Positions 28,729-62,820 of a stretch of 64,000 nucleotides of DNA are shown piece by piece; position 1 is the stretch's first letter, and each line of letters begins with the position of its first letter. The translations under genes were made by a program, and so were the position numbers. Under the pieces are notes generated by a model. The model was not told the origin of the DNA. It saw only the letters and a program-made list of their open reading frames with translations, and made no database searches. Location of the stretch: assembly GCA_009602735.1 (NCBI GenBank), contig WELA01003054.1, forward strand, positions 460,952 through 524,951, in the 5' to 3' direction. The DNA is from Mesotaenium endlicherianum. Taxonomy: Eukaryota.

Positions 28729-29448
28729 TGTAATGAATCAGTATATTAGTTGATATAATATTCATTTAAATAATAAATTTAAATAAGTTCAGCCTGCTGA
28801 ACTTTAGTTAATATCGAGTCTGCTGGACTTTATTAAATCATCAGTTTAATGACTCAGCCGGAAGCAGCAGGCTGAAGTCAACTTCGGTCAGCTTGCTGAC
28901 AAATTCTTTGAAAGTCAGCTGACTTCCGTAGTCGGTCGCAGCAAACTGCCTAGATATGCATCTAAGTGTGGTGTGCTAGATGAATGGCCAGATGACATCC
29001 TTAGGATGGATGGCGATTCGGGATGATGGGAGATGGCGGTGGATTTGGTTAACCGAGGTCCTACCAACGTGGTTAACTCCCGGGTAGGCGGTGCCATCGC
29101 ACTGACCGTTGAACAGTAAACTCATTCCATGTCCATATGCTAGGCATTGCTCTCGAGTTTGGCATTCGGAAACGAGGCCAACTCTCTTGTACAGCTTACT
29201 GAGAGAGATCTGAATCCAAGGCGAGAAGCCATTGATACGCACTGTCTTCTAACCTTGCTTATGTATGAGTTTACTGATTTGCATTATTGATGCTAGTTTA
29301 CTCGCATTTGACTTACGAGTATTATTCACTGCTAGTGTGTTGTCCTTTGCCGTTAAACCAGTTAACGGAAAATACCATAAAGATTACTTGCTGATATAAA
29401 GATCTTTATTAATTGTTAATCGCCTATTTGGTAAGTCGATTCATTTCA
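28729..29448 (+). repeat. B1 5' LTR
   Basis: tgtaatgaatc...gattcatttca terminal inverted repeat; PBS follows. Confidence 0.95.
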
Positions 29449-29482
29449 GTGGTATCGGAGCTGTTATCACAGTCTTCTTTGT

Positions 29483-30961: not shown

Positions 30962-30984
30962 TCCAGTCTACTGACTGTGAGGAT
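30937..30984 (+). promoter_or_regulatory. Family B -1 frameshift signal with probable pseudoknot
   Basis: T_TTA_AAA (30937-30943), 7-nt spacer, perfect 10-bp stem ACAGTCAGTA/TACTGACTGT; loop ATCC can pair with GGAT at 30981-30984. Identical in B2 (56407-56454). Confidence 0.8.
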
Positions 30985-33900
30985 GCTAGAGATAGTGAGT
31001 CGTCACTAGCTGCCCTCGTAGCAGGTATTATGGGTCCTGCTGAACTGGATTCACTATGCATGCCTGACAACCAGATAAAGGAGACCATCAGCAATATAGA
31101 CGTCCAGAGAGTGCACACTCTGGATGCTCTTGTTCCACCTGATGTCCAACATTTCTTTGCTACGTCAGGAGAACAATGCGAAAGTCAGGAAAAGACAGTC
31201 CCCCCTATCCTACTGCATTGCATGATTGCAGGTAGGAAGGTGAGGGCATTTGTTGACGGAGGGGCGTCACATACTTTTATCCACAAGGACTTAGTTAAGC
31301 GGCTAAGGCTGCCTACTGTCACCCAAGGGAATAGAAAAATATTCCTTGGAGATGCCTCAAGTATCCCGGGAGGAGTTATAACCAAGCCTATTGAGGTCCA
31401 GTTAGGTTCTGGCATTGCAGTTCTAACTGAAACGCTTACATTTGAGGTACTCAACACTGGCTTTTATGATCTCGTGCTAGGCAGGTCCTGGCTTAATAGA
31501 CATCAAGCTGAAGTGTGTTGGAGCAGAGGTACAGTTAAAGTGAGAGGAGCCAGTGATGGGCAGACTGACTTGGCACCCACCAGTGCTCTTCCTCTTGTCC
31601 TGTGTGGATGGCAACTGAAGGAAAAGAAGAGGCTTCCAGAAGGATGCAAGTTGCTGAATGCAATGGAGTTCGTCAAAAGCTGGAACCAGAAGGAAGACAG
31701 AATGTTTTGTCTGCTGCTAAAAGAGGTACCTCCTCAACCTGAACAAGTGGTTGCGAAAAAGGTAAGCCCTCCGGAGCACCCTATTGCTGCAAAAATTGTT
31801 GCTCAGTACACGGATGTATTTGATATGCCTCCAGGACTACCCCCTAAACGGGAAGTAGATCATAGGATTGATTTATTACCTGGTAGTCAGCCACCCTGGC
31901 AACGCACTTATGGCTTGTCCTATGTGGAAAGCGAGGAGTTGAAAACACAGATTGCAGAGCTTGAGGAAAATGGTTATATTTCTCCCAGTATATCACCTTA
32001 CGGCGCACCCATCCTATTTGTTAAGAAAAAGGACGGCAATATGCGGATGTGTGTGGATTACAGAGCTCTGAACAAAATTACGGTAAAGAACAAGTATGCC
32101 TTACCCAGAATCGAGGACTTGCTTGATACCCTGTCTGGTGCTAAAGTGTTCAGTAAGATAGATCTCAAGAGTGGTTATCATCAAATCAGAATTCCTGAAG
32201 GTGATGAACACAAGACTGCCTTCCGCACACGCTATGGACACTATGAGTTCAACGTGATGCCATTTGGACTGACTAATGCTCCTGCTACCTTCATGGGTGC
32301 TATGAATGACATTTTCAGACCTTATTTGGATAAGTTTGTGCAAGTTTTTCTAGATGATATTTTAATTTTCTCTAAAGATGAAGCTCAGCACACTGAACAT
32401 TTAAAGACTGTCCTGGACTCTCTGAGGAAGAATCACTTATATGCTAAAATGAGCAAGTGTGATTTCTTTAAGGAAAGTATTGAACTCTTAGGCCACGTTG
32501 TAAGTAAAGAGGGCATCAGTGTGGATCCTAAGAAAGTCCAGACCATAAGGGACTGGCCAGTACCACAGTCGGTCTCTGAAGTTAGATCCTTCCTCGGGTT
32601 GGCTAACTACTATAGGAGATTTATTGAGAATTATTCCACAAAGGCCAGTAAACTGACTGACCTTACTAAGAAAGACATAGGGTATGTGTGGGGGGAAGAG
32701 CAGCAGGCTGCCTTCCAAACCATTAAAGATGCCCTTTGTTTTGCCCCAGTGCTAGCCGTGTATGACCCCAGCAACCCCGTGCAGGTGGTCACTGATGCCT
32801 CTGACTTTGCCATGGGTGCTATTTTGTTGCAGCTTGCTGACAAGACCACAAAGGATGGTAAGGTACGGCAGGAGTGGCATCCTGTGTTGTACGAGTCTAT
32901 GAAATTTAATCCAGCAGAGATTAATTACTCAGTGCATGATAAGAGCTGCTAGCTATCATTCATGTGCTCAAACAGTGGAGAGCATACTTACATGGTAAGG
33001 CCTTTAAGGTGATTACAGATCATCTAGCTCTGACCCACTTTCAGAAGAAGTCCAAGCTGTCGAGGAGGGAGAACCGCTGGAGCCAGATGCTGGAGCAGTT
33101 CCAAGTCCAGATCGACTACAAACCAGGGAAGTTGAATCCTGCTGATGCACTCTCTAGAAGACCTGACTTGCAAGATACGAACTTTAGTCAGCATGCTGTA
33201 GATAAAGTCCTGTGTGCACTCACTTCACTACAGGTGAAAAAGTCCTTCCTTGAACAACTTAGGAAAGCCTACCTTTCTGATCCAACATTTGAGCCCAACC
33301 CCACTACTGGTGTGTGTTGTGCTACTGCACTCGGGTATAAGCTGAAGGGAGGGGTCTGGGTGACTGAAACCACATCAGGCAGGCTGAAGCTGGTCATTCC
33401 TAATAACTTGGAAATAAGGTCTCTCTTACTGAGTCAAGCGCATGACAGTCTCCTGGGGCAGGCCAAAACTGTTGGCAAACTGGCAAAACATTATCATTGG
33501 GAGGGATTACCCTGGGAGGTCTTGAAATATGTCAACACCTGTGACCAGTGTCAGAGAAATAAGTCTCGGCACACACCACCCGGAGGTCTCTTGCAACCAC
33601 TGTCCATCCCAGCTGGACGCTGGGAAACTATATCCATGGACTGGGTGGTCTCACTACCAAGAACTGCCAATGGGCATGATTCCATACCGGTAGTCGTGGA
33701 TAAATTGACAAAAATGGTCATTTTTATCCCCACAACTGTCAAAGTGACTGCACTCGAAACAGCGAGACAGTTCTACAACCATGTAGTATGCCAACATGGG
33801 CTCCCTTCTAATATCATCTCAGACAGAGACTCAAAATTCACCTCTAAGTACTGGAGAGCTTTAATGGGGTTAATGGGAGTCCAACAGCTGCTCAGCACAA

Positions 33901-34750
33901 CAAAGCACCCTCAGACTGATGGCCAGACTGAAAGAACTAACCGAGTTCTGCAGGATGTGCTGAGAGCATATATTAACCAAAAACAAAATAATTGGGATGA
34001 CCTGTTGCCTCAAATTCAGTTTGCGGTCAACAGTGCGGTGCACGCGTCAACGGGCAAGACTCCTTTTGAACTCAGCCTGGGTAGAGTCCCTAAGTCCCCT
34101 CTAGATGTTCTGGGGGAGTCTTTAACTCACCCTGAAGGGATTGACAATCCGGTCTCCCTCCAGTTAACCCAGGAGTTTGCTGACACCCTGTCAAAAGTCC
34201 AACAAAACCTGCACAGAGCCCAAACAAACCAACAAAAATACGCTAATCAACATCGTCGGGAGCTGACATTTTCTAAAGGCGATTTAGTCAAACTGCATTC
34301 TCAGCACCTGTACCTCCCTGGTGTGGTCAAGAAAAAGCTTGGCCCTGTCTGGGTCGGTNCCCTGTGTGGGTCGATCCATGTTCGGTGGTGCGTCGTGTCG
34401 GTCAGAATGCTTACAAACTGAACATGTCAGCCGAATACAAGGGTCACCCGGTCTTTAATGTCTCCTTCCTGAAACTCTATATCAAAGGTGATACACTGTT
34501 CACAGGTCGGTTACCTGTCCAACCGGGAACGGTCCCCGCTGTCCGGGACGGCGATCCTGAGGAATATGAGGTCGATGAGATTTTTGACGCTCGCTCGATC
34601 CGTCGATCGTCTAAACATGTCATGAAGTACCTCATCCGATGGAAGGGTTACGGTGCCTCTGGGGACACTTGGGAATTTAAAGACCAGCTGACCAATGCCA
34701 AAGGGGCGTTAAAACGGTTCCACCTTCAGGCGGCTGGGGCACCGCCCTAA
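30940..34750 (+). pseudogene. pol: B1 pol (protease, RT, RNase H, integrase, chromodomain) with frameshifts
   Basis: [72 protein letters not shown]. Confidence 0.95.
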
Positions 34751-34954
34751 CTGTCCCTTCAGTAGACATGGGAAGGTGACAGGAGGTCCTGTCTCCATAT
34801 AAGTGGAGGGGAATGTGACAGTTGTGACAGGCAGCCCACCTTTAAAATTAAGTTGGAGGGAGTGGTAGTCTCTGATCACCATGTTACCCACTCAACCTGC
34901 GCTCACACTCACTTGCTCTCCAACTCAATTTTTCCTTATATTCGCTCACACCAG

Positions 34955-35062
34955 GTATTCCACTCTAGGAACTCTCCCGATCGCGTCCCTCTTCATCAAG
35001 GGCACTCAGTAGCGGCAAAATATCATGACTTCACTAACTGCATTGTGTTTATGATTGAGCAG
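34955..35062 (+). promoter_or_regulatory. Putative intron / splice acceptor upstream of ORF3
   Basis: CAG|GTATTC donor, CACTAAC branch point (35032-35038), CAG|G-ATG acceptor. Same layout in B2 at 60482-60583. Confidence 0.6.
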
Positions 35063-35063
35063 G

Positions 35064-36740
35064 ATGACTCAAAAGTCGGAACTCAAGAGGAAGAGAAGGG
35101 CGGAAGAGGCACATGCAGAATACTTGCAATTCCGTGGAGACATCGAATCATCTTCCATCACCGCTCGGGAATCACAACGACTCCAACAACAGCGGGAGGC
35201 ACAGAAGAAGAAGGAGGAGGAGGAACAGGCCAGACTGAGGCAGGAAGAAATGGACAGAAAAGCTGCAGAGGAGGCCAAGAAAGCAGAGGAGGAGAGGCAA
35301 GCTGAGGAGAAGCGGAAGTAGCAGGCTGAAGAAGAGGAACAGAGGAGAATCAGCAGCTACCGCTACACAGTGCTGGGCAAGGGCTTTGATCTACTGGAGG
35401 AGGCCTTCAAGTATGCCCAGAGAAGTCGCAGTGAGTCGCAGAAGGAAATCCTCCAGAGGGAAGGGGAGACATCCGAAAACTTTGACAAGTATATAGAGGT
35501 TAGCACGGGGCTCCTCCTCTACCATGATTATGCCAGGATGGTAGGGTATACGGTCAGAGAGGCCAAGGCAATGGCCCAGGTGAACGAAGCAGGGGCTGTC
35601 TCGATTCCTGGTATCTGGGGGGAAGATAGGGTCATCAGGATGATCCCCATGGACGCGGACAGCTTCAAGGACTCAACACCCCATAACAGGTTCGAGGCCA
35701 TGTACAATGAGGTGGAGAGGAGGAGCTGGGAATTCTTGGCCAGAGAAACCAGTCAGCTGGACTTTGCAGGGCACTGGTACCCTTGTACTCTTAAAAGGAC
35801 AGACCCTGCCTTCTTCCAAAAGCCCACCGATTGGCGGTGGATGACCATCAACATGAGGGACCGGCAGAATGACAGGGCGACGGATGAGGATTTCCTGACA
35901 GACCTAAAGGGGAACATAGTATTGCCCCCTCACATTGCGGCTTGGGACCCAAGATTGGATGGAGTCAGAGACTGCATGAGCCAAGAGATGCAGGGGGACA
36001 GAAGCTGGGCCCGAGAGTCATTCTCAAAAGGGAAGCACGCTTATGCCAAATAGGCAAGTAAGCAGGGGGAAAAGGACCTCTATGCGGTCCGGACTCAGCA
36101 ACCCCCACCAGCACCCAAAAGGGGAAGGTCCGTAGGATNCGTAGGATATTCTTTATCTCGGGAAGAGCTGGAGCAGCTGACAGAAGAGACCCCAGAAGTC
36201 TCAGAGGAACCCGGGGACGGCGAGGAGGAGGAGTCAGAGTAAGACGAGGAGGAAGGCGAGGAGGAGGATACTAGTCCCGTCGTGATCCTGACACCTGCCA
36301 CATCCCCTGTAAGGGAGAAGACGAGGTTGGTCCTGCAGCAACTCGCTGAAGAGGAGGATATCACTTGGCTGGGAACTGCCAGAGGACAGAGCCCATCTGC
36401 AGACACGGAGACCCCGTCAGACAGAGCAGACAGAAGGGTTGCTTGGGAGATAGCCAGAGGCCTGCCAGCATCTCCCTCGCAGAGAGGGCATGTACCCTTG
36501 GCTCATGTCATGCAACATCCTTCCGGGATGCCGGTATACATACCTATCAGTTTGAGGGCTGCCCAGGAGAAGGCTGCCTCCCTTCAGTTTCAGACTGTGC
36601 AGGAGGAAACAGCCCAGTTACTGCGTTCTCCGCCGGGTCCTTACACGCAACCTCTCTCTCTGACAGGCTTCAAAAGACCCCAAGACAGGAGGAGGTCTGG
36701 CTCCCCTGAGTATTGGGCCTCAGGGACATCTCCCTCCTAA
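35064..36740 (+). pseudogene. Family B accessory ORF3, variant a (~555 aa, unknown function)
   Basis: A single reading frame across ORFs 35055, 35370 and 36282, with only point stops (35319, 36051, 36240); homologous to variant b in B2. Confidence 0.85.
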
Positions 36741-36825
36741 TGGCAGTAGGCTGGGGACGGAAGGGACAGCACGCTGTTATTAGTGTTAGTGTTGTCGAGG
36801 CGACAACATGATATGGTGGAGGGAT

Positions 36826-37539
36826 TGTAATGAATCAGTATATTGGTTGATATAATATTCATTTAAATAATATAGTTAAATAGCTTGCTGAACTCTAGTT
36901 AATATCGAGTCTGCTGGACTTTATTAAATCATCAGTTTAATGACTCAGTCGGAAGCAGCAGGTTGAAGTCAACTTAGGTCAGCTTGCTGACAAATTCTTT
37001 GACAGTCAGCTGACTTCCGTAGTCGGTCGCAGCGTACTGCCTAGATATGCATCTAAGTGTGGTGTGCTAGATGAATGGCCAGATGACATCCTTAGGATGG
37101 ATGGCGATTCGGGATGATGGGAGATGGCGGTGGATTTGGTTAACCGAGGTCCTACCAACGTGGTTAACTCCCGGGTAGGCGGTGCCATCGCACTGACCGT
37201 TGAACAGTAAACTCATTCCATGTACATATGCTAGGCATTGCTCTCGAGTTCGGCATTCGGAAACGAGGCCAACTCTCTTGTACAGCTTACTGAGAGAGAT
37301 CTGAATCCAAGGCAAGAAGCCATTGATACGCACTGTCTTCTAACCTTGCTTATGTATGAGTTTACTGATTTGCATTATTGATGCTAGTTTACTCGCATTT
37401 GACTTACGAGTATTATTCACTGCTAGTGTGTTGTCCTTTGCCGTTTAACCAGTTAACGAAAAATACCATAAAGATTACTTGTTGATATAAAGATCTTTAT
37501 TAATTGTTATTTGCCTATTTGGTAAGTTGATTCATTTCA
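36826..37539 (+). repeat. B1 3' LTR
   Basis: Nearly identical to the 5' LTR; follows PPT GGTGGAGGGAT. Confidence 0.95.
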
Positions 37540-42477: not shown

Positions 42478-44225
42478 TGAAATGAATCAACTTACCAAAT
42501 AGGCGATTAACAATTAATTAAGATCTTTATATCAGCAAGTAATCTTTATGGTATTTTCCGTTAACTGGTTAAACGGCAAAGGACAATACACTAGCAGTGA
42601 ATAATACTCGTAAGTCAATTGCGAGTAAACTAGCATCAATAAAGCCAATCAGTAAACTCATACATAAGCAAGGTTAGAAGACAGTGCGTATCAATGGCTT
42701 CTTGCCTTGGATTCAGATCTCTCTCAGTAAGCTGTACAAGAGAGTTGGCCTCGTTTCCGAATGCCGAACTCGAGAGCAATGCCTAGCATATGTACATGGA
42801 ATGAGTTTACTGTTCAACGGTCAGTGCGATGGCACCGCCTACCCGGGAGTTAACCACGTTGGTAGGACCTCGGTTAACCAAATCCACCGCCATCTCCCAT
42901 CATCCCGAATCGCCATCCATCATAGGGATGTCATCTGGCCATTCATCTAGCATGCCACACTTAGATGCATATCGAGGCAGTTCGCTGCTACCGAGTACGG
43001 AAGTCAGCTGGCTGTCAAAGAATGTGTCAGCAAGCTGACTTAAGTGGACTTCAGCCTGCTGCTTCCGGCTGAGTCATTAAACTGCTATTAAATATTAAGT
43101 CCAGCAGACTGATTATTAACTAGTGTTCAGCAGGCTGAACTTAATTAACTATTATACTGAATATTATATCAACTAATATACTGATTCATTACAATCCCTC
43201 CAACTTAACTTGTTGTCGCCTCGACAACGTTAAACTGCAAAGCCTTAAATAAAGTGATTGAACCTGACCAGCCTCCCTTACTGACTGCCTCTTCAGCCTG
43301 TCACCTTAAGGGGTTGTTCCTGGGGCTTCAGGATCAGGAGACGGAGATCTGGACCTGGATCTGAACAGCCCTCTAGGTCTGTCAGCTGACCTTCTAAAGA
43401 ACCCTGTTTGCTCTAAAGTTGGACCTCGAGGAGAACGAAGGATAGTAGCCTGCTCTTCACCCACTTGGGTGTTGATCCCCACATAGACAGGCATTCCAGT
43501 AGGATGCTGAAATACATTGGCTAGAGGTACATGCCCTTGAGCGGAGGGGGAGGCCGGCATACCTCTGGCCCACCCGCGTGTCCCTCACCTGGCACTCTTG
43601 TCCTCTGGGGACTTCTGCCTGTGTCTGCTGCCCAGTACAGTCAGATCAGCTTCTTCCCCTGCTTGGGCAGGTGGGCTGGGGGAGCGAGCGCGGGGTCCAG
43701 TAGTCGCCATAACGGGGATCACATTCCAAATACCTGATCGTGGTTCTTTAAGAGGCGCCCCTACCTGTCCCTGGGTATCCTGAGTACCTGCTGCTGATGC
43801 TTCTCCTCTGCCCTGTTCTTCTTCCTCAGCCTCCTCATCCTCCTCCTCGGAGACAGTAGGGGTCTCGTCCACTAAGTCGTCCTGCTCCCTAGTAGACATG
43901 GAGTAGTCTACCGACCTCTCTTTCTTAGGGCGCGCTGGAGGTTGCTTGGCCTTCAGCCTGCTGATATCTATCCGGCCTGCATTCTTTGCCCATTTGACAA
44001 AGGCATGCTTTCCCTTCGAGAAGTAGTCTCTTCCCCTCCTCCTATGCTCCTTGGTCTCTGCATTCATATTGCTCAGGCATCCATTCAGCCTCGGATCCCA
44101 AGGGGCAATGGGAGGTGGTAGGATGAGATAGCCGTCTAGGCCATAGTGGAAGTCATCTGGTTGGGCTCGGTCACACTCCTGCTTCTTATTTGTGACGGTC
44201 ATCCACCTCCAGTCTGTTGGCTGCT
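42478..44225 (-). mobile_element. Family B copy B2, 3' part (3' LTR 42478-43193, PPT, ORF3b C-half)
   Basis: B LTR plus PPT; TSD CTACT pairs with AGTAG at 54194-54198. Confidence 0.92.
43306..44220 (-). pseudogene. ORF3 variant b, C-terminal half
   Basis: PTDWRWMT..LPPPIAPWDPRL..FSKGKHA..GMPASPSAQGHVPLANVFQHPTGMPVY; joins in frame to 60585-61343. Confidence 0.85.
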
Positions 44226-47283: not shown

Positions 47284-48108
47284 TGTAATAAATCAGTATA
47301 TGGGTAGATATATTATTCATTTAATTATAATAGTTAATTAAGTTCAATTTGCTGAACTTTATGTAGTATTGAGTTTGCTGGACTTTATATGATTATCAGT
47401 TTAAAGGACTCAGCCGGGGGCAGCAGGCTGTAGTCAACTCAAGTCAGCTTGCTGACTCATTCTTTGACAGCCAGCTGACTTCCGTACTCGGTAGCAGCGA
47501 ACTGCCTCGATATGCATCTAAGTATGGTATGCTAGATGAAAGGCCAGATGACATCCCTATGATGGAAGGCGATTCGGGATGATGGGAGATGGCGGTGGAT
47601 TTGGTTAATCAAGGTCCTACCAACGTGGTTAACTCCCGGGTAGGCAGTGCCATCGCACTGGCCGTTGAACAGTAAACTCATTCCATGTACATATGCTAGG
47701 CATTGCTCTCGAGTTCGGCATTCGGAAACGAGGCCAACTCTCTTGTACCGCCTACTGAGAGAGCGCTAAATCCAAGGCGAGAAGCCATTGATACGCACTG
47801 TCTTCCAACCTTGCGTATGTATGAGTTTACTGATTGCAATACTTATGCTAGTTTACTTGCATTTGACTTACGAGTATTGTTCACTGCTAGTGTGTTGTCC
47901 TTTGCTGTTTCATCAATTAATGAAAAATGCCATAAAGATTACTTGCTGATATAAAGATCTTTAATAATTGTTAATCGTCTATTTGGTAAGTTGATTCATT
48001 TCAGTGGTATCGGAGCTGTTATCACAGTCTTCTTTGTATGGTAAGGACAAGGTCTCAAACTAGCAACTCCCGAGACATGGAGAACCAGGATAACGAGAAT
48101 GTCAAAAA
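47284..48108 (+). mobile_element. Family B copy B3, 5' stub (LTR 47284-48003, PBS, first ~70 nt of gag)
   Basis: B LTR, TGGTATCGGAGC, MVRTRSQTSNSRDMENQDNENVK, then an abrupt switch to A sequence. Confidence 0.92.
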
Positions 48109-48327: not shown

Positions 48328-51300
48328 TCAAGCTTCCAGATCTGTCTTCAGGGATACCATCACTGCATTTAATTGCAGTCTTGAGAGGGGGTCAGCCGGG
48401 TTTGTCTTGCCGGGCTGGTACTGAATCGTGATGTTGTATTGTTGCAAGTATCCGCTCCATCTTGCTTGTCTCCTTGAGAGATACGGCTGCGTTTGGAGGT
48501 GCTTTAACGCCTCGTGGTCCGTGGTGACCAGTACTTTGCGTCCTTCAACGTAGCAGCGCCAAACCTTCAAGGCATGTACAATCGCCAATGCCTCTCGCTC
48601 CGTGGTTGTATAATTTTGCTCGGCTGGATTTAGCTTCCTTGACTCGTAGGCGATGGGCTGCAGTCCCTTGCCTTGGTCTTGAAGCAGGATTGCTCCTATT
48701 GCATAGGAAGATGCATCGGTGATGACGTGGAAGGGCCAATCTGGGTTTGGACTTGGGAGTGTGAGCACCGGGGATGTGGTCAATCTTCGCTTTAACTCTT
48801 GAAATGCCTCTTCCTCTTTCTCGGTCCATGTATATAGCCTGTCCTTCTTGAGTAGATCTGTCAGGGGGGCTGCTATGTGCGAGAAGCCTTGGATGAATTT
48901 TCTGTACCAATTGGCAAATCCCAAGAATGACTGGAGTTCTTTCTTGGTCGTGGGGGTTGGCCATTCCTCCACCACCGTGGTCTTCTTGGGGTCCATCTTG
49001 ATGCCATCAGCAGTCACGTGGAGACCTAGGAACTCCACTTCTTGTTTGGCAAACTCGCACTTTGACTCCTTCGCAAATAGCTTGTTTTGCTTCAATACTT
49101 CAAGGACTTCTTTCAAGTGTCTCGCATGCTCTTCAAGGGTCTTGCTGTAGATAAGGATGTCATCGATGAATACCACCACAAATCTGTCCAACATGGGCTG
49201 AAATATGGTGTTCATCATAGTCATGAAAGTTGCTGGCGCGTTGGTGAGTCCAAATGGCAGGACCATGAACTCAAAATGTCCATATCTTGTCCTGAATGCC
49301 GTCTTCTCTATGTCCGGTTCTGCGATGCGAATCTGGTGGTAGCCGCTCCGTAAGTCAATCTTCGTGAAGTACTTGGCTCCAACCAGCCGGTCCATGAGCT
49401 CATCCATGCGCGGCAGCGGGTATCGATTCTTGATGGTGATCTTGTTGAGGGCGCGATAGTCCACACACATCCTCAAGGTACCATCTTTCTTCTTGACAAA
49501 TAGCACCGGGGCTCCAAATGGCGACTTGCTAGGTCGAATGAAGCCATGCTCCAGTAGCTCCTTGATTTGCTTCTTGACTTCGTCTAGCTCCGTGTATGAC
49601 ATTTTGAACGTAGGCCGAGAGATGGGCTTGCTTCCGGGCTCCAACTCTATCTTGTGGTCTACGAATCTTTTGGGGGGTAGGCCCTTGGGCAATTCCGGGG
49701 AGAACACTTCTTTGTAGTCCTCAAAGACTTCTTGTATCTCCTTGGGAACGGGGCTGCCTTCTTGACTCTCGATGTCTTTCTTGATGTCTTTTGGCGTGAT
49801 CAAGGCCAAAAGAAGCTCGTGTCCCTTCCTCACAAGTCTCTTGAGTTGGAGGGCGGACAATAGTATCTCGTGTGCCGGCTTCTGGATGTCTTGGGTCTGG
49901 ATATTCTGGATTGCGCGCAAAATACAGATTCTTGAAGTGATGTCATTCTTGATCTTGATAGTACCGGTCCTCCAATCAACTTGGGGGTTGTGCTTGGTCA
50001 ACCAAGGCGTCCCTAGGATGACGTCGTACTTGCCCAATTGCATGGGGGAGAACACTACTCTATCCTTGAAGGACTTGATAGAGAGTGCCAAGGGGTACGT
50101 CTTCTTGGAAGGGGTAGTATAGGAGAATCCATCGGGCATCATAATCTCCTCGTCGTGGTCAAGAGTTCGCATAGTAATACCGTGCTTGGTGGCGAAATCT
50201 GCAGCAATGAAGTTGCCTTGAGCTCCGCTATCCACCAAGATGTGGACCTTCTTTCCTCCAAGGTAACCTCTCAAACTCATTGGGGCTGGAACGTCGTCTT
50301 CAACGGGAGTCTCCACCTCACTTGGCTTGTTGTCTTCTCGTGAAGTGGGTCTTGGGGTGGTAGGCTCCTGGCCTACCGGCGCTGTTCGTTTTTTTGACAA
50401 CTTTTTGGGGCATGACAGTGCACGATGGCCCTTTTCCTTGCAATAAAAGCATAGTCTCGCCGTCATGAGAGCTTCTTTTTCAGCCGGGGAGAGTCTTCCT
50501 TTCACTCGTTGCTGGTTTCTTGCATCATAAGTGTCATTGGAGGGTCTTCCACTATTCCGAGCAGCCGCGGGGTCCCTTTTAATAACTCCGATTTCCATGG
50601 GTGTGGGTCCAGATTCTGATGTGGAAGGGGCTGCGTACACCCGCGTCGTCGGAACCCGTGAAGATGGAGGCACGGAGTGCTTGAAATCCAAGGTATCCAC
50701 CTTTTGGGCCAAGTGTCCAGCATATGAGCAATCATGATGCTCCGCAAGTAATAAGTCTCGTAGCTCCTTGATGTCAGGTACCACCACTCTCTTGGAATCA
50801 CCATAATACCATATGCCGTCCTTCTTCTGCATACTTGAGTTGGACTCAGCTGCTCCACCATCAGCAAACTCTGGGTCCTCCTCATAACCTCTCTGAAGCT
50901 TCTCCTTGAAGTCCATACTCTCCTTGATGACCGAGACAGCTGCAAGGTCACACCTCCTGGATAAAGCGTCTGCAGGGTTGATCTTCCCAGGTAAGAACTC
51001 AATCTTGTGGTCGAACTGTTGCAGAAACTCCATCCACCTTGCCTGTCTTGGTGTCAATGTTAGCTGCGTCATAAACTTCACCAAGCTCTTGTGGTCGGTC
51101 TTGATGGATACCTTTCGGCCGTCCATATAACATCGCCAAATCCTCAAAGCCTGGATAACAGCCAACATCTCCCGCTCGTGTGCTGCATAGTTTTGCTCAG
51201 CAGGACTCAACTTCCTGCTCTCATATGCCACAGGCTGCAATCCTTTGCCCTGTTCCTGGAGAAGAATGGCTCCCACTGCGACATTTGATGCTTCCGTGAT

Positions 51301-52632
51301 GATGGTGAAAGGAAGCTCTGGACTTGCAATTGCCAACACAGGTGCCTGTGTCAACAGCTCCTTAATCTTCTCAAAGGCTTGCTGCTCCTTGTCACCCCAT
51401 AGCCACTTCTCCTGCTTCTTCAGCATGTCTGTGAGCGGTGTACATACCTTGGCAAATCCTTCAATGAAACGTCGATAATAATTCGCCATGGCGAGGAAGC
51501 TTCTGAGTTGATGAATACCAGCAGGTACCGGCCAATCTCTGACTGCTTGCACCTTCTTCTGCTCCACCTTGACTCCTTCAGCTCCCACTATGTGCCCAAG
51601 AAACTCGACCTCCTTGAGACAGAAGTCGCACTTGCTCATCTTCCCATACAGCTTCTGATCTCTCAAGACCTCCAACACCTTCCTCAGATGCCCCACATGC
51701 TCTTCCAAGGTCTTCGAATAGATCTGGATGTCGTCCAAAAATACCACCACAAATTGGTCCAAGTAGGGACTGAAGATACTATTCAAGAGTCCCATGAATG
51801 TAGTAGGTGCATTCGTCAACCCAAAAGGCATGATTGTGAACTCGAATAACCCATAGCGAGTCCTAAGAGCAGTCTTCTGAATGTCTTCTTCCGCAATCCG
51901 TACCTTGTGATAGCCACTCCTCAAATCGATCTTCGAGAAATACTTCGCCCCGACAAGCCTGTCAATCAACTCGTCCACTCGTGGAAGTGGGTACCTGTTC
52001 TTGATGGTGACCTTGTTCAGTGCCCGGTAGTCGACACACATCCTCATAGTCCCATCCTTCTTCTTCACAAATAAGACTGATGCTGCAAATGGAGACTCGC
52101 TGGGTCGGATGAATCCCTTCTCCAATAACTCTGTCAGCTGCTTCTTCAACTCGTCCAACTCCGTAAACGATTGACGATAGGCGGGTCTCACTGGTGGCTT
52201 GCTCCCTGGTTCCAACTCGATCTTGTGCTCCATAGCTCTCTGTGGAGGTAATCCTGTACGTAGCTCCTTAGGAAACACGCACTCGAACTCCTCCAACAGC
52301 GCCTCAATCTGGGCAGGCATCTCAGCAGGCTTCTTCTCTTGAGCAGTTGGGCTTTGCTCCTTTTGAGCAAGGGGATTAAACACCACTACTTGCTCCTCCG
52401 GCGATGTATATTCGCCCAGGCTGTTAGGATTCACGCTTGCTCCATCTGATGACCTGGCCAGGGCCACCGAAACAAGGTACATCTCCTTCACCTGATTTGC
52501 CCTGCATAGCTTCTTAACTTGCAGGCTCGACAGAAGACAGTTACTTGTGGTCGTATCTACCTCCACCTGTTTCGCTGTCTCCATTCGACCATCACGCCCT
52601 TGGACTTTTACTTGTCCTGTGCTCCAGTGCAC
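48328..52632 (-). CDS. pol: Chimeric 1434-aa ORF: C RT-RNase H and start of integrase zinc finger, fused to A gag tail, protease, RT, RNase H
   Basis: Two RT motifs (FLDDIQI, FIDDILI), two RNase H domains, junction [18 protein letters not shown] at 50710/50711. Product of the inversion; expression doubtful. Confidence 0.85.
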
Positions 52633-54126
52633 TTGAAGGTTGGCTTTTCTTAGCCATGGTCAGCCCAATATCACTCATAGTGACCCAACTCTGCCTGCTC
52701 CATAACTTTAGTACCCTGGTGCCTCGCTACTTCCATGTGAATAGCTTCCGTAGGTGCACCACACTTGAGTCTCTGCCCATTCGCCAAAATTGCCTCCTTA
52801 GGCTCATAATGCTTCTGCACAGGAATTCGCCACTTTTTCACCAGCTTCTTGTACACAAAGTTTGCACTTGCGCCACTGTCGACCATACACTTCGCCCTGT
52901 TGCCGTCGACTACTCCTTCCACGATGATAGGCTTGTCCACGTCTCGTCCTTTGCTTCTCGGCAGGCTCCTGGGGATAACCTCCTTGTGAGTTCTCGTCTT
53001 CACGCCAGTAGACACTCTAGAACGACTTACTGGCGTCCTTCTTTTTCCTGCTGTTGAGGTTGCTTCGCCTTCACATGACAGTCTCAAGCCAGATGTCCAA
53101 GCTTGCCACAATTATAACAGGGTCCCCTCGACTTGAAGTTTTGCTGCCTGCGCTGGTACTGCACAAGTCTCAACTCCATAGGTACTAGACCTTGTCCACT
53201 CGTGCTTGGCGCTTGAGATCCAAAGTGTCAATAACCTCCAAAGTTGTGGCTGCCCCACTGTCTCTGACTATACTCCACAACGTTGACCCTTGTTGCCAAT
53301 GCCATCGTTTCTCCAAGACTGGTAGGGTCCTTGAGCGCCACTTCCTTGGCCATAGTTGGCTTGAGTTCCCTCTTGAACTTATCCATCATCTCCGACTCGT
53401 GCATGGATGGACATTGAAGCACCTGCTCGTTGAAGCGCGATACATACTCTTGAACACTTCCTCGTTGACGAAGGCGCACCAATAGATCTCGAGCAGTAGC
53501 CTCGGTTGCAAGAGGTTGAAATTGCCTTTAAGCCTTCAAAGAGCTGATCAACAGTAGTAGGAACTCCAGACAGCTGCTCCTGTCGCTCATACCAAGCTCC
53601 AGCACTCTTCTTCAGCAAAGTAATCACAAAGGCAACTTGCCTTTCGGTTGTGAGCGCAAAATATTCCATAAACTTCCTCACTCCAAAAATCCATTGATGA
53701 ACAGGCGGCCATCCACGCTCTCCAGTATACACTTCAGGCTTAGGCGCACGCACTCCCGATCCGGGTGGAATAATTGGTTGCACCACTGGATTAAGATGGA
53801 TCGGTGGTACAACAGGTGCAGGTGCCAAACTTGTCAAAGCGGCATTCCCAACAACAACTCGCACCATCCTCTCCACCTCCGCGCGCATATTTTGTTGAAA
53901 TTGGGCGTAGACTTCTCCTCCAATTGCATTCGCCATTTGCCTCAGCATCGCCTGCATTTCTTGTTGCTCTCTGGTCATCGTTGGTGCTGCTTGCTGCCCC
54001 GCACGCTCAACATGCTCGACATGTTCGCCTCCTCCAGCACTGCGACTTTATAATATGATATGCAAACTAGCCCAGCTCCGATACCAAATGAAAGGGGCAG
54101 AGTGCCCTAGTGGAAGCGTAGTGACT
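50711..54126 (-). mobile_element. Family C copy C2, 5' part (U5 stub 54089-54126, PBS 54075-54086, decayed gag, protease, RT, RNase H)
   Basis: Collinear with C1 ~17053-20500. Confidence 0.93.
52999..54040 (-). pseudogene. gag: C2 gag, frameshifted
   Basis: ORFs 53379..53978 and 53228..53482 are homologous to C1 gag. Confidence 0.88.
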
Positions 54127-54953
54127 CACGATGTGAGGTCATAGGTTTATAAAGTGCTTTTTTGAGTGTCATGAAAGTATGTTCTGATTGTACAGTAGTG
54201 TAATGAATCAGTATATTAGTAGATATAATATTCAGTTAAATATAATAGTTAATTCAGTTCAGCCTGCTGAACACTAGTTAATAATCAGTCTGCTGGACTT
54301 AATATTTAATAGCAGTTTAATGACTCAGCCGGAAGCAGCAGGCTGAAGTCCACCTAAGTCAGCTTGCTGACACATTCTTTGACAGCCAGCTGACTTCCGT
54401 ACTTGGTAGCAGCAAACTGCCTCGATATGCATCTAAGTGTGGCATGCTAGATGAATGGCAAGATGACATCCCTATGATGGATGGCGATTCGGGATGATGG
54501 GAGATGGCGGTGGATTTGGTTAACCGAGGTCCTACCAACGTGGTTAACTCCCGGGTAGGCGGTGCCATCGCACTGACCGTTGAACAGTAAACTCATTCCA
54601 TGTACATATGCTAGGCATTGCTCTCGAGTTTGGCATTCGGAAACGAGGCCAACTCTCTTGTACAGCTTACTGAGAGAGATCTGAATCCAAGGCGAGAAGC
54701 CATTGATACGCACTGTCTTCTAACCTTGCTTATATATGAGTTTACTGATTTGCTTTATTGATGCTAGTTTACTCGCATTTGACTTACAAGTATTATTCAC
54801 TGCTAGTGTCTTGTCCTTTGCCGTTTAACCAGTTAACGGCAAATACCATAAAGATTACTTGCTGATATAAAGATCTTAATTAATTGTTAATCGCCTATTT
54901 GGTAAGTCGCTTCATTTCAGTGGTATCGGAGCAGTTGTCACAGTCTTCTTTGT

Positions 54954-56431
54954 ATGGTAAGGACAAGGTCTCAAACTAGCAACTCCCGAGACATGGAGAA
55001 CCAGGATAACGAGAATGTCGAAAATCAGGCGGAAAGCCATGTAGCGGGAAACCGTACCTATTCTGAAGGAGTAGCAGATACTGCAGCTAGGGAGGCTGCA
55101 GATGAGGCAGCTGCTATTGCCGCAGTCGCAGCACAGCAAGATGAGGAGGAGAGAGCCAGGCTAGAAGCTGAACAATTAGCAAAGGCCGCTGAAGATATAC
55201 AAGGAGGGAAAGACAGCCAGCTGACGAGCGCACTGTCGAGGAACTTATGGCATCAAGGGCCAATATTCTGAACCCACCTCCTGCTGTACAACTGAATGTA
55301 CCCCTAGGTCAAATACGTGACCGGCTGAATGCGGCAGGAATTGCTGCTGCAGGAGCAAGAGGGACTGTTGAGGACACTACTCAGCGAGTAGAGGTCAATG
55401 CTGCTTCTGCATTCGCTAATCTACCACCCCAGAGTGTAGACTTGGGAGCGTTGTTCGTTCAGATGCAGTCGCAAATGGCGACCATGGATCAGTCCCAACA
55501 GGAGGACAAACGAATCATAATGTCTCTACTGCGGGACAGAGACCAACTGGGTTCTCAAACCACCGGTGGTGGTGGCCGAGGGCCTAGTAAGCCCAAGCCG
55601 AAACCTCCCCAGGAATATGATCCTGACGGAAACAGAAAATAGTACCTGATCAAGTTTCTCGCGGATGTTGAGCAGTGGCTGGAGAACTACCCAGAACTGC
55701 AAGATTACGAGAAGGTCAAGCACACCGGCGCGCTACTGAAAGGCAGTGCCGCAGACTGGTGGCTTTACTGGAAAGGAGAGCGTAAGGCTCGGCAAGTCGG
55801 TGACCCTACGTGGGTAGAGTTTGTCGATAAGTTGCATGAGAAGTTTGATGTCATCAACCAGCAGGAGAAAGCTATCTATGCGATGATCTCCCTCACACTG
55901 AAGCAGACCACTTCAGTTGCTGAGTTTGCTCAAAAGTTCCAGGAGAACATGATGAAGCAGCCAGATTTGCCAGAACGGTATAGGATAGCATACTTCAGGT
56001 ATGGCTTGAAATCCGAGGTCTCTGGTCATTTTGCTGAGAAAAAGTATGAGAAACTGGCTGACTTGATCCAGGATGCTGATGCCTGGGATCAGCAGCAGTT
56101 CAATCACAAGCGCCAGAGTAATGCTTTGGTGTCTAAGGTTGTCAAAAAGCCCCACGGTTCCTACAATGCAGTTGAAGGAGACCAGGCTGAGGATAATCAG
56201 GGTGATGAATATGAGTATGAGTACAATGCTATTCAGTCTAGAGGTAGAGGTGGTCCCTCTCGAGGTGGCTATGGAAGGGGTGGTGGTAGGACTAAGCCGA
56301 GACCAGCCTCAGCAAAATCTACTTGCTACCATTGTCAGCAGAAAGTTCACTACAAAGAACAGTGTCCAGTCAAGCACCTTCCGAAGGTCGAGAGAAAAGA
56401 CCAGCCTTTAAAAGACAGCAACAGTCAGTAA
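54954..56431 (+). pseudogene. gag: B2 gag (frameshifts, stop)
   Basis: Nearly identical to B1 gag. Confidence 0.92.
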
Positions 56432-59400
56432 TCCAGTCTACTGACTGTGAGGATGCTAGAGATAGTGAGTCGTCACTAGCTGCCCTCGTAGCAGGTATTA
56501 TGGGTCCTGCTGAACTGGATTCACTATGCATGCCTGACAACCAGATAAAGGAGACCATCAGCAATATAGACGTCCAGAGAGTGCACACTCTGGATGCTCT
56601 TGTTCCACCTGATGTCCAACATTTCTTTGCTACGTCAGGAGAACAATGCGAAAGTCAGGAAAAGACAGTCCCCCCTATCCTACTGCATTGCATGATTGCA
56701 GGTAGGAAGGTGAGGGCATTTGTTGACGGAGGGGCGTCACATACTTTTATCCACAAGGACTTAGTTAAGCGGCTAAGGCTGCCTACTGTCACCCAAGGGA
56801 ATAGAAAAATATTCCTTGGAGATGCCTCAAGTATCCCGGGAGGAGTTATAACCAAGCCTATTGAGGTCCAGTTAGGTTCTGGCATTGCAGTTCTAACTGA
56901 AACGCTTACATTTGAGGTACTCAACACTGGCTTTTATGATCTCGTGCTAGGCAGGTCCTGGCTTAATAGACATCAAGCTGAAGTGTGTTGGAGCAGAGGT
57001 ACAGTTAAAGTGAGAGGAGCCAGTGATGGGCAGACTGACTTGGCACCCACCAGTGCTCTTCCTCTTGTCCTGTGTGGATGGCAAATGAAGGAAAAGAAGA
57101 GGCTTCCAGAAGGATGCAAGTTGCTGAATGCAATGGAGTTCGTCAAAAGCTGGAACCGGAAGGAAGACAGAATGTTCTGTCTGCTGCTAAGAGAGGTACC
57201 TTCTCAACCTGAAGAAGTGGTTGAGTAAAAGGTAAGTCCTCCGGAGCACCCTACTGCTGCAAAAATTGTTGCTCAGTACACGGATGTGTTTAATATGCCT
57301 CCAGGACTACCCCCTAAGAGGGAAGTAGATCATAAGATTGATTTATTACCTGGTAGTCAGCCACCCTGGCAACGCACGTATGGCTTGTCTTATGTGGAGA
57401 GCGAGGAGTTGAAAACACAGATTGCAGAGCTTGAGGAAAATTGTTATACTTCTCCCAGTAAATCACCGTACGGCGCACCCATCTTATTTGTTAAGAAAAA
57501 GGATGGCAGTATGCGGATGTGTGTGGATTACAGAGCCCTGAACAGAATTACAGTAAAGAACAAATATGCTTTACCCAAAATCAAGGACTTGCTTGATACC
57601 CTGTCTGGTGCTAAGGTGTTCAGTAAGATAGATCTCAAGAGTGGTTATCATCAAATCAGAATTGCTGAGGGGGATGAACACAAGACTGCCTTCCGCACAC
57701 GTTATGGACACTATGAGTTCAACGTGATGCCATTTGGACTGACTAACGCTCCTGCTACCTTCATGGGTGCTATGAATGACATTTTCAGACCTTGTTTGGA
57801 TAAGTTTGTGCAAGTTTTCCTGGATGATAATTTAATTTTCTCTAAAGATGAAACTCAGCACACTGAACACTTAAAGACAGTCCTAGACACTCTGCGCAAA
57901 AATCACTTATATGCTAAAATGAGCAAGTGTGATTTCTTTAAGGAAAGTATTGAATTCTTAGGCCACGTTGTCAGTAAAGAGGGCATCAGTGTGGACCCGA
58001 AGAAAGTCCAGACCATAAGGGACTGGCCAGTACCACAGGCGGTCTCTGAAGTTAGATCCTTCTTCGGGTTGGCTAACTACTATAGGAGATTTACTGAGAA
58101 TTATTCCACAAAGGCCAGTAAACTGACTGACCTTACTAAGAAAGACATAGGGTATGTGTGGGGGGAAGAGCAGCAGGCTGCCTTCCAGACCCTTAAAGAT
58201 GCCCTTTGTTCTGCCCCAGTGCTAGCCGTGTATGACCCCAGCAAACCGGTGCAGGTGGTTACTGATGCCTCTGATTTTGCCATGGGTGCTATTTTGTTGC
58301 AGCCTGCTGACAAAACCACAAAGGATGGTAAGGTACGGCAGGAGTGGCATCCTGTGTTGTATGAGTCTATGAAATTTAATCCAGCGGAGATTAATTACTC
58401 AGTGCATGATAAAGAGCTGCTAGCTATCATTCATGTACTCAAACAGTAGAGACCATACTTACATGGTAAAGCTTTTAAAGTGATTACAGATCATCTAGCT
58501 CTGACCCACTTTCAGAAGAAGTCCAAGCTGTCGAGGAGGGAGAACCGCTGGAGCGAGATGCTGGAGCAGTTCCAAGTCCAGATCGACTACAAACCAGGGA
58601 AGTTGAATCCTGCTGATGCACTCTCTAAAAGACCTGACTTGCAAGAAAGGAAGTTTAGTCAGCATGCCGTAGATAAAGTCCTATGTGCACTCACTTCACT
58701 AAAGGTGAAAAAGTCCTTCCTTGAACAACTTAGGAAAGCCTACCTTTCTGACCCAACATTTGAGCCCAACCCCACTACTGGTGTATGTCGTGCTACTGCA
58801 CTCGGGTATAAGCTTAAGGGAGGGGTCTGGGTGACTGAAACAACTTCAGGCAGGCTGAAGCTGGTCATTTCTAATAACTTGGAAATAAGGTTTCTCTTAC
58901 GGAGTCAAGCGCATGACAGTTTCCTGGGTGGACATTTGGGGCAGGCCAAAACTGTTGGCAAACTGGCAAAACATTATCATTGGGAGGGATTACCCCGGGA
59001 AGTCTTGAAATACGTCAAGTCTTGTGACCAGTGTCAAAGAAATAAGTCTCGGCACACACCACCCGGAGGTCTCTTGCAACCACTGCCCATCCCAGCTGGA
59101 CGCTGGGAAACTATATCCATGTACTGGGTGGTCTCACTACGAAGAACTGCAAACGGGCATGATTCAATACTGGTAGTCGTGGATAAGCTGACAAAAATGG
59201 TCATTTTTATCCCCACAACTGTCAAAGTGACTGCACTCGAAACAGCGAGATAGTTCTACAACCATGTAGTATGCCAACATGGGCTTCCTTCTTATATCCT
59301 CTCAAACAGAGACTCAAAATTCACCTCTAAGTTCTGGAGAGCTTTAATGGGGTTAATGGGAGTCAAACAGCTGCTCAGCACAGCAAACCACCCTCAGACT

Positions 59401-60255
59401 GATGGGCAGACTGAAAGAACTAACCGAGTTCTGCAGGAGGTGCTGAGAGCATATATTAACCAAAAACAAGATAATTGGGATGACCTGTTGCCTCAAATTC
59501 AGTTTGCGGTCAACAGTGCGGTGCACGCGTCAACGGGCAAGACTCCTTTTGAACTCAGCCTGGGTAGAGTCCCTAAGTCCCCTCTAGATGTGCTGGGGGA
59601 GTCTTTAACTCACCCTGAAGGGATCGATAATCCGATCTCCCTCTAGTTTACCCAGGAGTTTGCTGACACCCTGTCAGAAGTCCAACAAAACCTGCACAGA
59701 GCCCAAACAAACCAACAAAAATACGCTAATCAACACCGTCGGGAGCTGACATTTTCTAAAGGCGATTTAGTCAAACTGCATTCTCAGCACCTGTACCTCC
59801 CTGGTGTGGTCAAGAAAAAGCTTGGCCCTGTCTGGGTCGGTCCATATTCGGTGGTGCGTCGTGTCGGTCAGAATGCTTACAAACTGAACATGTCAGCCGA
59901 ATACAAGGGTCGCCCGGTCTTTAATGTCTCCTTCCTGGAATCATACATCAAAGGTGATACACTGTTCACAGGTCGGTTACCTGTCCAACCCGGACCGGTC
60001 CCCGCTGTCAGGGACGGCGACTCTGACGATTATGAGGTTGAGGAGATTTTAGACGCGCGCTCGGTCCGTCGATTGTCTAAATATGTCATGAAGTACCTCA
60101 TTCGATGGAAGGGTTACGATGCCTCTGGGGACACTTGGGAATTTAAGGACCATTTGACCATTGCCAAAGGAGCGTTGAAACGGTTCCACCTTCGGGCCGC
60201 TGGAGCCCCTTCAAAACTGTCATTTCAGTTGACACGGGAAGGTGACAGGCGGTAG
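56410..60255 (+). pseudogene. pol: B2 pol with several nonsense mutations
   Basis: Protease, RT, RNase H, integrase and chromodomain motifs as in B1; stops at 57226, 58447, 59251 and 59644. Confidence 0.94.
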
Positions 60256-60584
60256 TGTCTCCATTTAAGTTGGAGGGGAAAATATATGACAGTTAGTGAG
60301 TGAGAGCGATGAAGGGACAGTTACGTGAATCCTAAGTGTCAGCATAGTGACAGAGGGGACAGCCTGGCCCACATAAAGCACCTTAAGCGGAAGGAAGGAA
60401 CTTAACTCACCCTCAAACACATTCATATGTTTATGCTTAGCGCACCGCAATTACGTCAACTTTTAGCAATCACCCTGTAAGGTAAACAGGAGCAAATCCA
60501 CTATACTAATACTAACATACTTCCTGCAATCCCTATGACAAAGGTCCATATCCTACTAACTTGTGCCCTGGTTACATGTGCAGG

Positions 60585-61343
60585 ATGGCTCCCAACACAC
60601 AAAAGGAGGACAGAAAGCGCAAGGCAGGATAAGTCAGGAGGACAATGGAGCAATACCAGAAGGAGCTGGCGGCGACGTCCCTCACCAGGAGAGAACAAGA
60701 AAGGGTCCGCAGACAACAAGAGGCGGCAGAAGAAGCACAGAGGAAGAAGGATCAGGAAGCGGAAAACCTCAGGAAAGCTGAGGAGGCGAGACGGAAGAAA
60801 CAACAAGAAGAAGCGGCAGCGGCAGAGGAGGTGAAAAGGAAAAAGATTGAAGCGGACAAATAGAAGAGCTTGGGCACTTACAGGTATACTGTGGTGGGTG
60901 GCCAAAACTTTGATAACCTGAAGGAAGCATTACTGGCAGCCCAGGAGATCAACAAGCGGGAACAGACAACACTGCTACAGAGGGAAGGAGCTACAGCACT
61001 GGACAGGTACATCGAGACACACACCGGCGTGGTCCTTTACGAAGATTATGCTAAGATGGTGGGCTATACAGCAGAGCAGGNATACCTTGCAGATGATTCA
61101 GAAGACAAGCCGGTCTCCATACCAGGAATAGTGGGAGATCAGAGACTCATCCGGATGGTGAGCATGCGACCCGATAGCTTTAAGGATACGGTATTCTACC
61201 TCACACTACTGCCAGCTTACAATGAAGTGGAGAGAAGGAGCTGGGAGTACTTGGCCAGGAAAGCAGGACAGCAGATGTTCTCTCCCCACTGGTTCCCGTG
61301 TAAACCGAGGAAGACTGAGCACGCACCCCAGTACTACCAGCAG
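60585..61343 (+). pseudogene. ORF3 variant b, N-terminal half
   Basis: MAPNTQKEDRKRK, E/K/R/Q-rich helix, YRYTVVG..YIETHTG..LYEDYAKMVGYT..SIPGI..DSFKD..YNEVERRSWEYLAR; one frame, stops at 60630 and 60861. Confidence 0.85.
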
Positions 61344-62820
61344 TGTAGTGATTTGAGTTATTATATATTAGTTTGCATATACTTTAATGTTTTCAAATAT
61401 ATTTGGAGTAGTATTGTGTGGATTCAAGTGTGAATAGGTACTCTAGTGACTTGGTTCATGTCCTTTGAACCTTCTAAGGCATTTTTGAAGTTAGAGGAAA
61501 GACCTAGAAGACCTCCCCGTGGCAAAAGTCAACTGTGCCATTTTTAGGTCAGAAGGACATGTGTACATTATTCTAGAAAGAGGTGGCAAATTTTGGGATG
61601 TGTTGGGTGCCAACACATCAACATACACCTTCCTAGAAGTTACTTATTTAGCAAGTATATAAACAAGAGCTAGAACATAGAAAGACATTCCAGAATCACT
61701 CTTGTACTTGCCAAAATCCAGAAATATATTAACTTTCAAGAAGCCATCTCTCTTTCAAGAAGCTACCACTTGTGTTCAAAGATCCTTGTCTTGAATAGAT
61801 AAAGTATTCTGTTTTACTAAGTACTTTATCTATCTGTTTCACTACAGTGGTATCGGAGCTAGGCACTTTGGTAGCACAAGAAGATGGCCGATCCTCGAGA
61901 CCAACAGCAAGCTTTCGAAGGAAGCCTTTCCTCTCCAAGACACCCTCCTCTAGCGCCGATGGGAGAGCCCACTCAAGAAAATCTGCAACAACGAGAAGCA
62001 CCACAAGGAGGAGTACACCCTCCTCCAGCGTCGATGGGAGAGCCTACTCAAGGAAATCTGCAACAACAAGAAGCACCACAAGGAGGAGCACTGTCAAATC
62101 CCGTGGCAGCCGCTATAGCAAAGTTGACCCCACCACAAGGAGTTCCCGCAAATGAGTGGGCAGCCTTCCTAATGACCGTCCACAACCAAGTGGGCTTGGC
62201 CACCTATGAAGCAACCGTGCAAGCGTCAAGAGAAGCTATGGCTGCCATGGTTGCCCCTATTGCGAGCAATGCTCAAAATCCAGCCCCGGCTCAAGCGCCT
62301 CCACAAGAGCCAACGAGAGCAAGGAAACTCATCAAGCCCGGCAAACCCGACACTTTCAACCCCGGGAAAGGTGCCAACCTGAATTTATGGCTCTACCAAG
62401 TGGAGACGTACCTCGCGTTCCTTGAAGTACCCGAGGAGGACTACGTTCCCTTTGCCGTTACCTTACTTAGAGGAGCAGCAACATCATGGTGGCGTAACTA
62501 TCAAGCGGCTATATATCAAGCTATGGCGCACCCCATGCTCGGCCAAGAGCCCCCACCATCATATGCAAGATGGGCAGATTTTCGTGAGGCCCTCAAGAAG
62601 CAATTCATGCCCATCAATGCGGAGAAGATTGCCCGAGGAAAGCTCCACCATCTCAAGCAAACGACGTCCGTTCAAGAGTATACATCCAAATTTCACGCCC
62701 TCGCTCTTGAGATCCCCAACATGTCTCTCGAGGAGAAGATTGACCGCTACATCTTTGGCCTGAAGCCCAAGGTGGCAAAGGAAGTGGAATTACGCGACTT
62801 AACGGACTTCTCAAGGATCA
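61344..62820 (+). mobile_element. Family A copy A4, 5' part (5' LTR 61344-61846, PBS 61848-61859, gag 61884-62820)
   Basis: A LTR, TGGTATCGGAGCTAGG, gag open up to the inversion breakpoint. Confidence 0.93.

Follow-up and report, generated by a model that had tools for sequence, protein, structure and literature searches.

Two copies of one high-copy retrotransposon family in a 64-kb stretch of DNA from Mesotaenium endlicherianum raise the question of how elements that are nearly identical through LTR, gag and pol can carry open reading frames (ORF3) whose products agree at only about half of their residues. The whole stretch of 64,000 nucleotides is called the window here, the two copies B1 and B2, and a further fragment of the same family B0. 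The original prediction, made from the letters of the window, had allowed for two answers: old ORF3 alleles exchanged by template-switch recombination, or diversifying selection on a host-conflict gene. We consider it highly probable that ancient ORF3 alleles (a and b) share one nearly uniform gag-pol backbone, on which they were likely placed as reverse transcription switched repeatedly between co-packaged RNA templates. The predicted exchange of old alleles was supported by silent-site saturation, by a tree conflict with B0 and by the partition of depth in public sequencing runs.

Family B elements in the window

Three Ty3/gypsy families are nested in one another across the window. Family B has the features of a Ty3/gypsy chromovirus, namely LTRs (720 bp), TSD, PBS, PPT and gag followed by PR-RT-RH-IN with a C-terminal chromodomain. 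Its gag and pol frames overlap, and the PBS is presumably of the Met type, judging by the end of the initiator tRNA. Translation of B1 and B2 placed Y/W/Y aromatic cage residues in both chromodomains. ORF3 is sense-oriented and lies between pol and the 3' LTR, an env-like position (Table 1). In B2 it is cut by an A element, and the predicted joining of the B2 halves across this insertion was upheld by matching 5-bp TSDs in both cases (AGCAG and AGTAG). In our own reading the layout would be accounted for by one inversion, 50711-62820. At the left join of this inversion, C-family RT/RH runs in frame into A-family PR-RT-RH; the resulting ORF of 1,443 codons (48328-52659, minus strand) holds two RTs and is either real or an assembly error. 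Within the integrase of the C element, a 68-bp inverted piece of its own LTR end (16725-16792) resembles an autointegration scar.

Table 1. Positions of family B features and of the nested A element in the window
Feature	Position	Strand	Evidence or remark
B1, whole element	28729-37539	+	TSD GTTGC
B1 5' LTR (28729-29448), then PBS, gag, pol (overlapping frame)	to 34750	+	
B1 chromodomain	34541-34750	+	Pfam PF00385, E 2e-8
B1 shared block, two internal PPT-like tracts (~34800; 34849-34860), allele-a spacer	34751-35063	+	
B1 acceptor-like site	35034-35062	+	motif match
B1 ORF3 allele a, ~555 residues	35064-36740	+	stops 35319, 36051, 36240; N gap 36139
B1 terminal hairpin, PPT, 3' LTR (36826-37539)	36790-37539	+	
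B2, whole element	54199-61343, resumes 44225->42478	+, then -	copy of TSD at 44225-44221
B2 5' LTR	54199-54919	+	TSD AGTAG at 54194-54198
B2 PBS	54921-54932	+	tRNA-Met-type (presumed)
B2 leader, gag, PR-RT-RH-IN, SH3, chromodomain	54921-60255	+	Pfam, alignment to B1, translation
B2 SH3 and chromodomain, Pfam span (chromodomain 60007-60255)	59647-60255	+	PF00385, E 7e-9
B2 block common to both alleles, ending in internal PPT-like tract (60266-60277)	60215-60278	+	
B2 allele-b spacer	60279-60584	+	not alignable to allele a
B2 branch-point and AG splice-acceptor-like site, spacer end	60556-60583	+	motif match
B2 ORF3 allele b, codons 1-253	60585-61343	+	stops 60630, 60861; N gap 61081
A element insertion in B2 ORF3	61339-61343	+	TSD AGCAG
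A element 5' LTR, inside B2 ORF3	61344-61846	+	partner LTR 44728-44226 (-)
B2 ORF3 allele b, last 304 codons and stop	43306-44220	-	internal stop 43587-43585; TSD 44225-44221
B2 terminal hairpin, PPT (43207-43196), 3' LTR (43193-42478)	42478-43228	-	TSD AGTAG 42477-42473
B0 fragment: allele-a ORF3 tail, PPT (6082-6071), older-type 3' LTR (6068-5351)	5351-6694	-	

Divergence of ORF3 and of its backbone

Identity between B1 and B2 was measured in 250-bp sliding windows. Leader, gag and pol were 93-100% identical in nucleotides, the chromodomain 90%, and the spacer and ORF3 56-65%; the 250-bp segment that includes the hairpin and PPT had 80% identity, the LTR start 88% and the later LTR 95-100%. 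This profile bore out the predicted near-identical backbone with a drop at the chromodomain end and a recovery at the hairpin and PPT. Backbone mismatches numbered 189 in 4,904 columns (96% identical), and both alleles are joined gap-free to the same integrase end. Divergence sets in gradually from ~34470 rather than at a single point, and the first 278 LTR columns, which hold 26 of the 28 diagnostic sites, also split B1 from B2.

The ORF3 proteins share 246 of 510 aligned residues (48%) and the gag-pol proteins 95%. Identities in two pieces of ORF3 were 109 and 137, and shuffles reached at most 58 and 72 (30 each). The count of 36 of 65 identical residues in the best block was obtained again on recomputation. 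The near-equal lengths were also confirmed, with ~555 residues in B1 once a 9-nt gap duplicate was discounted and 253 plus 304 codons in B2, and the reading frame is maintained along the whole of each allele, apart from three internal stops apiece. B0 had been assigned to variant a, and its tail protein was 81% identical to B1 (119 residues) and 52% to B2 (56 residues).

Silent sites were compared between the two regions. For ORF3, pS was 0.73 and pN 0.34 (510 codons), as against 0.079 and 0.024 for the backbone (1,589 codons), with the chromodomain intermediate (pS 0.28). Fourfold sites differed at 65 of 104 positions in ORF3 vs 43 of 663 in the backbone (p 6e-38), and the local score of the 5' spacers, a against b, was equalled by 417 of 500 shuffles. 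With the silent sites and the spacer most diverged, the ancestor of the cassette is far older than that of the backbone. The dN/dS of a vs b was 0.16 overall and reached 0.24-0.26 in the portion with estimable dS; these values come from two full alleles, in which a few positively selected sites could escape notice. Within allele a (B1 vs B0) dN/dS was 0.49. Low dN/dS and open frames show that ORF3 was kept functional over that time. By this substitution pattern the ORF3 alleles are to be regarded as old, with saturated silent sites, and as under purifying selection rather than fast-evolving.

These values bear directly on a host-conflict arms race, in which ORF3 would have diverged fast by diversifying selection along the same genealogy as gag-pol. 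ORF3 proteins at 48% identity beside gag-pol at 95%, and the coexistence of both alleles at high depth, are what such a race could produce; for a host-conflict gene as such, this coexistence is the one piece of evidence. However, a higher pS cannot come from selection on the protein, so diversifying selection fails to explain an ORF3 whose silent sites are saturated and ~ninefold more diverged than the backbone, whose spacer is unalignable and whose dN/dS is low both between the alleles and within allele a. We regard this explanation as extremely unlikely, and the fast evolution put forward in the original prediction did not survive, silent sites and spacer having diverged beyond the amino-acid sites. 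The high divergence of extra ORFs, often taken as fast evolution, can thus be age combined with module exchange, which RT-based classification conceals.

Movement of the cassette among copies

Groupings of the three ORF3 copies in the window were compared between the ORF3 tail and the LTR, as B0 lacks gag-pol and RT could not serve. Across 418 columns of the ORF3 tail, B1 agreed with B0 at 175 sites, B1 with B2 at 13 and B0 with B2 at 15. From LTR column 279 onward (441 columns) the counts were 30 for B1 with B2, 5 for B1 with B0 and 3 for B0 with B2, a conflict with p 6e-22. Eight LTR sites set B1 and B2 apart from B0 plus two further LTRs. B0 therefore sides with B1 in ORF3 but is itself the outgroup in the later LTR, and allele a has thus sat on two LTR backgrounds, one of them home to both alleles. 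The two recombination steps of reverse transcription, as set out in part of PMC6894440, fit this LTR/ORF3 pattern.

Part of the chromodomain-ORF3a stretch was present in 20 of the 24 public runs listed (organisms A-E), and five of the 20 were examined closely; X1 is from organism A and may derive from the source of the window itself, and X8 (organism D) and X12 (organism E) are from other organisms and studies than X1. In X8 the RH-integrase region formed a single 1,142-bp backbone contig at depth 94.3, with allele-a contigs at 25.9 and 22.3 and allele-b contigs at 61.1 and 67.6 (range 61-69). The X8 contig differed by ~2.6% from each window copy. Bin means in X1 were ~850k for the backbone (17 bins), 301k for a (6 bins) and 451k for b (7 bins). 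In X12, where b and the backbone were measured, b stood at 47-69 vs 50-64 for the backbone, with an a-type branch at 60278 in addition; in both X8 and X12 the alleles branch there. Alleles a and b summed to about 90-100% of backbone depth in X8 and X1, summed contig depth being a rough measure rather than a copy number. This leaves little room for a third allele or for ORF3-less copies, and it makes the two-allele pattern family-wide and not a local misassembly. No single run contig spans integrase to ORF3, and the longest bridge on the b side covers 60242-60384 (X1). Between 60925 and 61080, allele b occurred in X8 as two sub-variants at depths of 50.2 and 18.7.

Where the runs depart from B2 in the chromodomain region, they carried B1's letter at all six sites checked, and at four U3 sites B2's letter was found on 88-100% of depth. 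The runs are mostly B1-like at the chromodomain start and B2-like in U3, so crossover positions vary among copies.

An assembly chimera, with gag-pol of one subfamily stitched to ORF3 of another, was also considered. The window contains seven single-N joins (16160, 20232, 34359, 36139, 46004, 47176 and 61081), five of them with duplicated flanks and two of those with mismatches, which result in false frameshifts and indels. The N at 34359 is an overlap artefact whose flanking duplicates disagree at two positions, and just past it B1 and B2 differ at 2 of 85 sites. In the protease region B1 and B2 are identical over 701 bp (30914-31614), where LTR ages predict 15-20 differences; divergence is ~4% elsewhere and the longest run in 2,000 permutations was 310. 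The LTRs of the nested A element differ at 21 of 503 sites and B2's own by 2.2%, which runs against the expected age order. These joins, the identical run and the LTR divergences would suit a chimera. On the other hand, the pol-ORF3 junctions are free of N (54199-61080 and 34360-36138), the TSDs match, the two LTRs of any one element are of the same type (28 diagnostic sites), and the single backbone contig of X8 is as deep as a and b together. We consider a chimera very unlikely. A B2 gag-pol mis-assembled from another subfamily had been named in the original prediction as a refutation; run depth gave no sign of it at the family level, and the one backbone stretch that looks homogenised, the 701-bp run, points to gene conversion or assembly collapse.

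The same run could be a B1/B2 conversion tract if there were two old families, with gag-pol homogenised by chromosomal gene conversion or a backbone sweep and the alleles carried as neutral passengers. That organisms A, D and E have both alleles may then reflect no more than bursts before the lineages split. A backbone that is uniform family-wide together with several crossover positions nevertheless fits reverse-transcription recombination, which also predicts the tree switch seen near the U3/R region, and open frames with low dN/dS mean an ORF3 kept functional rather than a passenger. Homogenisation seems to us quite unlikely.

Template switching, the reading we prefer, would proceed as described in part of the review PMC6894440. 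Reverse transcriptase would be unable to switch inside the 60%-identical cassette, and crossovers would fall in the homologous flanks: the chromodomain and the internal PPT block before ORF3, or the hairpin, PPT and U3 after it. Confined to these flanks, switching would move the cassette as a unit while the linked flanks erode. The terminal PPT 12-mer has four matches in the 64 kb, all at cassette ends, and the internal tract directly behind the chromodomain is identical to it, with the alleles diverging just after. This internal tract probably served as PPT in an ancestral element without ORF3 and would now provide the last homology for switching. An ORF3-less form joining both PPTs was absent among the 15 joints listed out of 232. 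The terminal hairpin gave z scores of -2.4 (B1), -3.4 (B2) and +0.5 (B0). A hairpin at the internal PPT is not proposed, with z -2.1 in B1 but +0.5 in B2.

Expression and product of ORF3, and known systems

The two spacers have a single motif in common, a branch-point/AG site located one base ahead of the ATG. An acceptor pattern, composed after both sites had been seen, matched twice in the 64 kb, both times at an ORF3 ATG, and none of 100 shuffles reached two. Splice-donor candidates were found at 29430 and 29485 as motif matches. From the acceptor-like site at both ATGs, we think it probable that a spliced subgenomic RNA encodes ORF3, as happens with env. RNA depth was at most 3.5 for allele a and, in X24, zero for allele b, and at this very low depth the 15 joints listed out of 232 held no spliced read. 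Low-depth RNA reads (X23, X24) over 33600-35000 have an orientation that suggests antisense transcription over the integrase and chromodomain (at most 9.5-fold). At 29448 and 29547, RNA reads exit the element at the LTR end and ~100 bp beyond it into unrelated sequence; a copy at 47284-48108 stops near the same point, and the reads are possibly host transcripts or a short derivative.

The N-terminus of ORF3 is charged and helical, its core is conserved and its tail is rich in Pro/Ser, with a conserved motif; the protein also has basic clusters and an acidic run. Its highest 19-residue hydropathy was 0.73, with no membrane helix, and Pfam searches with eight pieces gave nothing above cut-off and no env or fusogen match; judged by its sequence, ORF3 is not a membrane envelope protein. 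A phmmer search against 1.84 billion representatives returned as its only match an unrelated repeat protein (P0001, E 2e-4), an alignment A1 search against longer proteins only matched ORF3 to none of 7,980 candidates, and two Atlas searches gave no usable match. An Obc1_C identity was rejected, the weak Pfam match occurring in one allele only, and AlphaFold on a four-row ORF3 alignment gave an unusable model (pLDDT 35.8). VANC is an anti-silencing factor that acts by sequence-specific demethylation of its own element. VANC-like homology was absent from ORF3 in phmmer, in alignment A1 against longer proteins and in Pfam. Our best single guess, tentatively held, is that the product may be a soluble nuclear accessory factor that aids its own element's transcription or escape from silencing. 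The guess draws on composition and on analogy to proposals in part of PMC7264820. Co-adaptation of ORF3 and U3 was rejected, as most depth carries B2-type U3 letters whichever allele is present; a U3 type not tied to the allele counts against ORF3 acting on a matching promoter of its own.

A bolder and doubtful possibility is that ORF3 represents an accessory gene of a new kind, whose two alleles form an ancient balanced polymorphism in which each is favoured when rare. If true, the pair would have persisted through several turnovers of the backbone and through splits of the host lineage, with recombination keeping one backbone; the rare allele might gain, for example, in resisting sequence-specific silencing, or both alleles might act together in one particle. 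Two natural ORF3 versions on the same backbone, together covering roughly all backbone copies, provide a built-in comparison for ORF3's role.

Family B combines the aromatic cage, overlapping gag and pol frames, a Met-type PBS and a sense ORF3. In an RT tree built from database matches, without REXdb clade references, its nearest proteins were 66-67% identical with support of 0.40, and the best integrase matches were 31-46%. According to the available text of PMC6317226, cage-type plant chromoviruses are confined to non-seed plants and algae, and the corresponding text of PMC3350952 places cage-type chromoviruses in fungi and animals too. In the REXdb table of supplement 3 of PMC6317226, Tcn1, Galadriel, Chlamyvir, Reina and CRM are all entered without an extra ORF, none being listed for the cage-bearing clades. 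Sense extra ORFs are described for SIRE (eORF-3'F, 74%), Tekay (18%), TatII and Retand, with their function called an open question, in portions of PMC6317226 and PMC7264820; in those portions, two alleles on one backbone are not described for plant extra-ORF elements. The passages of PMC11963269 add nothing on module exchange, and titles and abstract openings, from a literature that covers few subscription papers, gave no case of a cage-type chromovirus with a two-allele orphan ORF3.

Module exchange itself is known, from env and from Ty1 gag, and the mechanism is ordinary; what is unexplained is the orphan ORF3 and its two-allele state. Retroviral and ERV env, in the part of PMC10536682 concerned, likewise sits at the 3' end, after pol and before the 3' LTR, and is swapped on a shared gag-pol by template switching, whereas ORF3 has neither membrane helix nor env match and is carried by a chromovirus. 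Ty1 and Ty1', as far as PMC7055915 is excerpted, resemble family B as coexisting subfamilies defined by one divergent recombined module. That module is gag, horizontally transferred and of known role, in contrast to an orphan accessory ORF at 48% identity. In SIRE, Tekay, Tat and Bagy2, as in family B, a long and highly divergent sense ORF follows pol ahead of the 3' LTR, and in Bagy2 this ORF is spliced, but the aromatic cage that family B has is nearly absent from Tekay (1.6% in the figures available). The ORF3 of bdelloid LTR retrotransposons comprises diverse modules, some coiled-coil and reportedly expressed from spliced messages (PMC5408684, in part). Those modules are described there as family-specific, and several are enzymes or fusogens, whereas family B carries two homologous alleles within one family.
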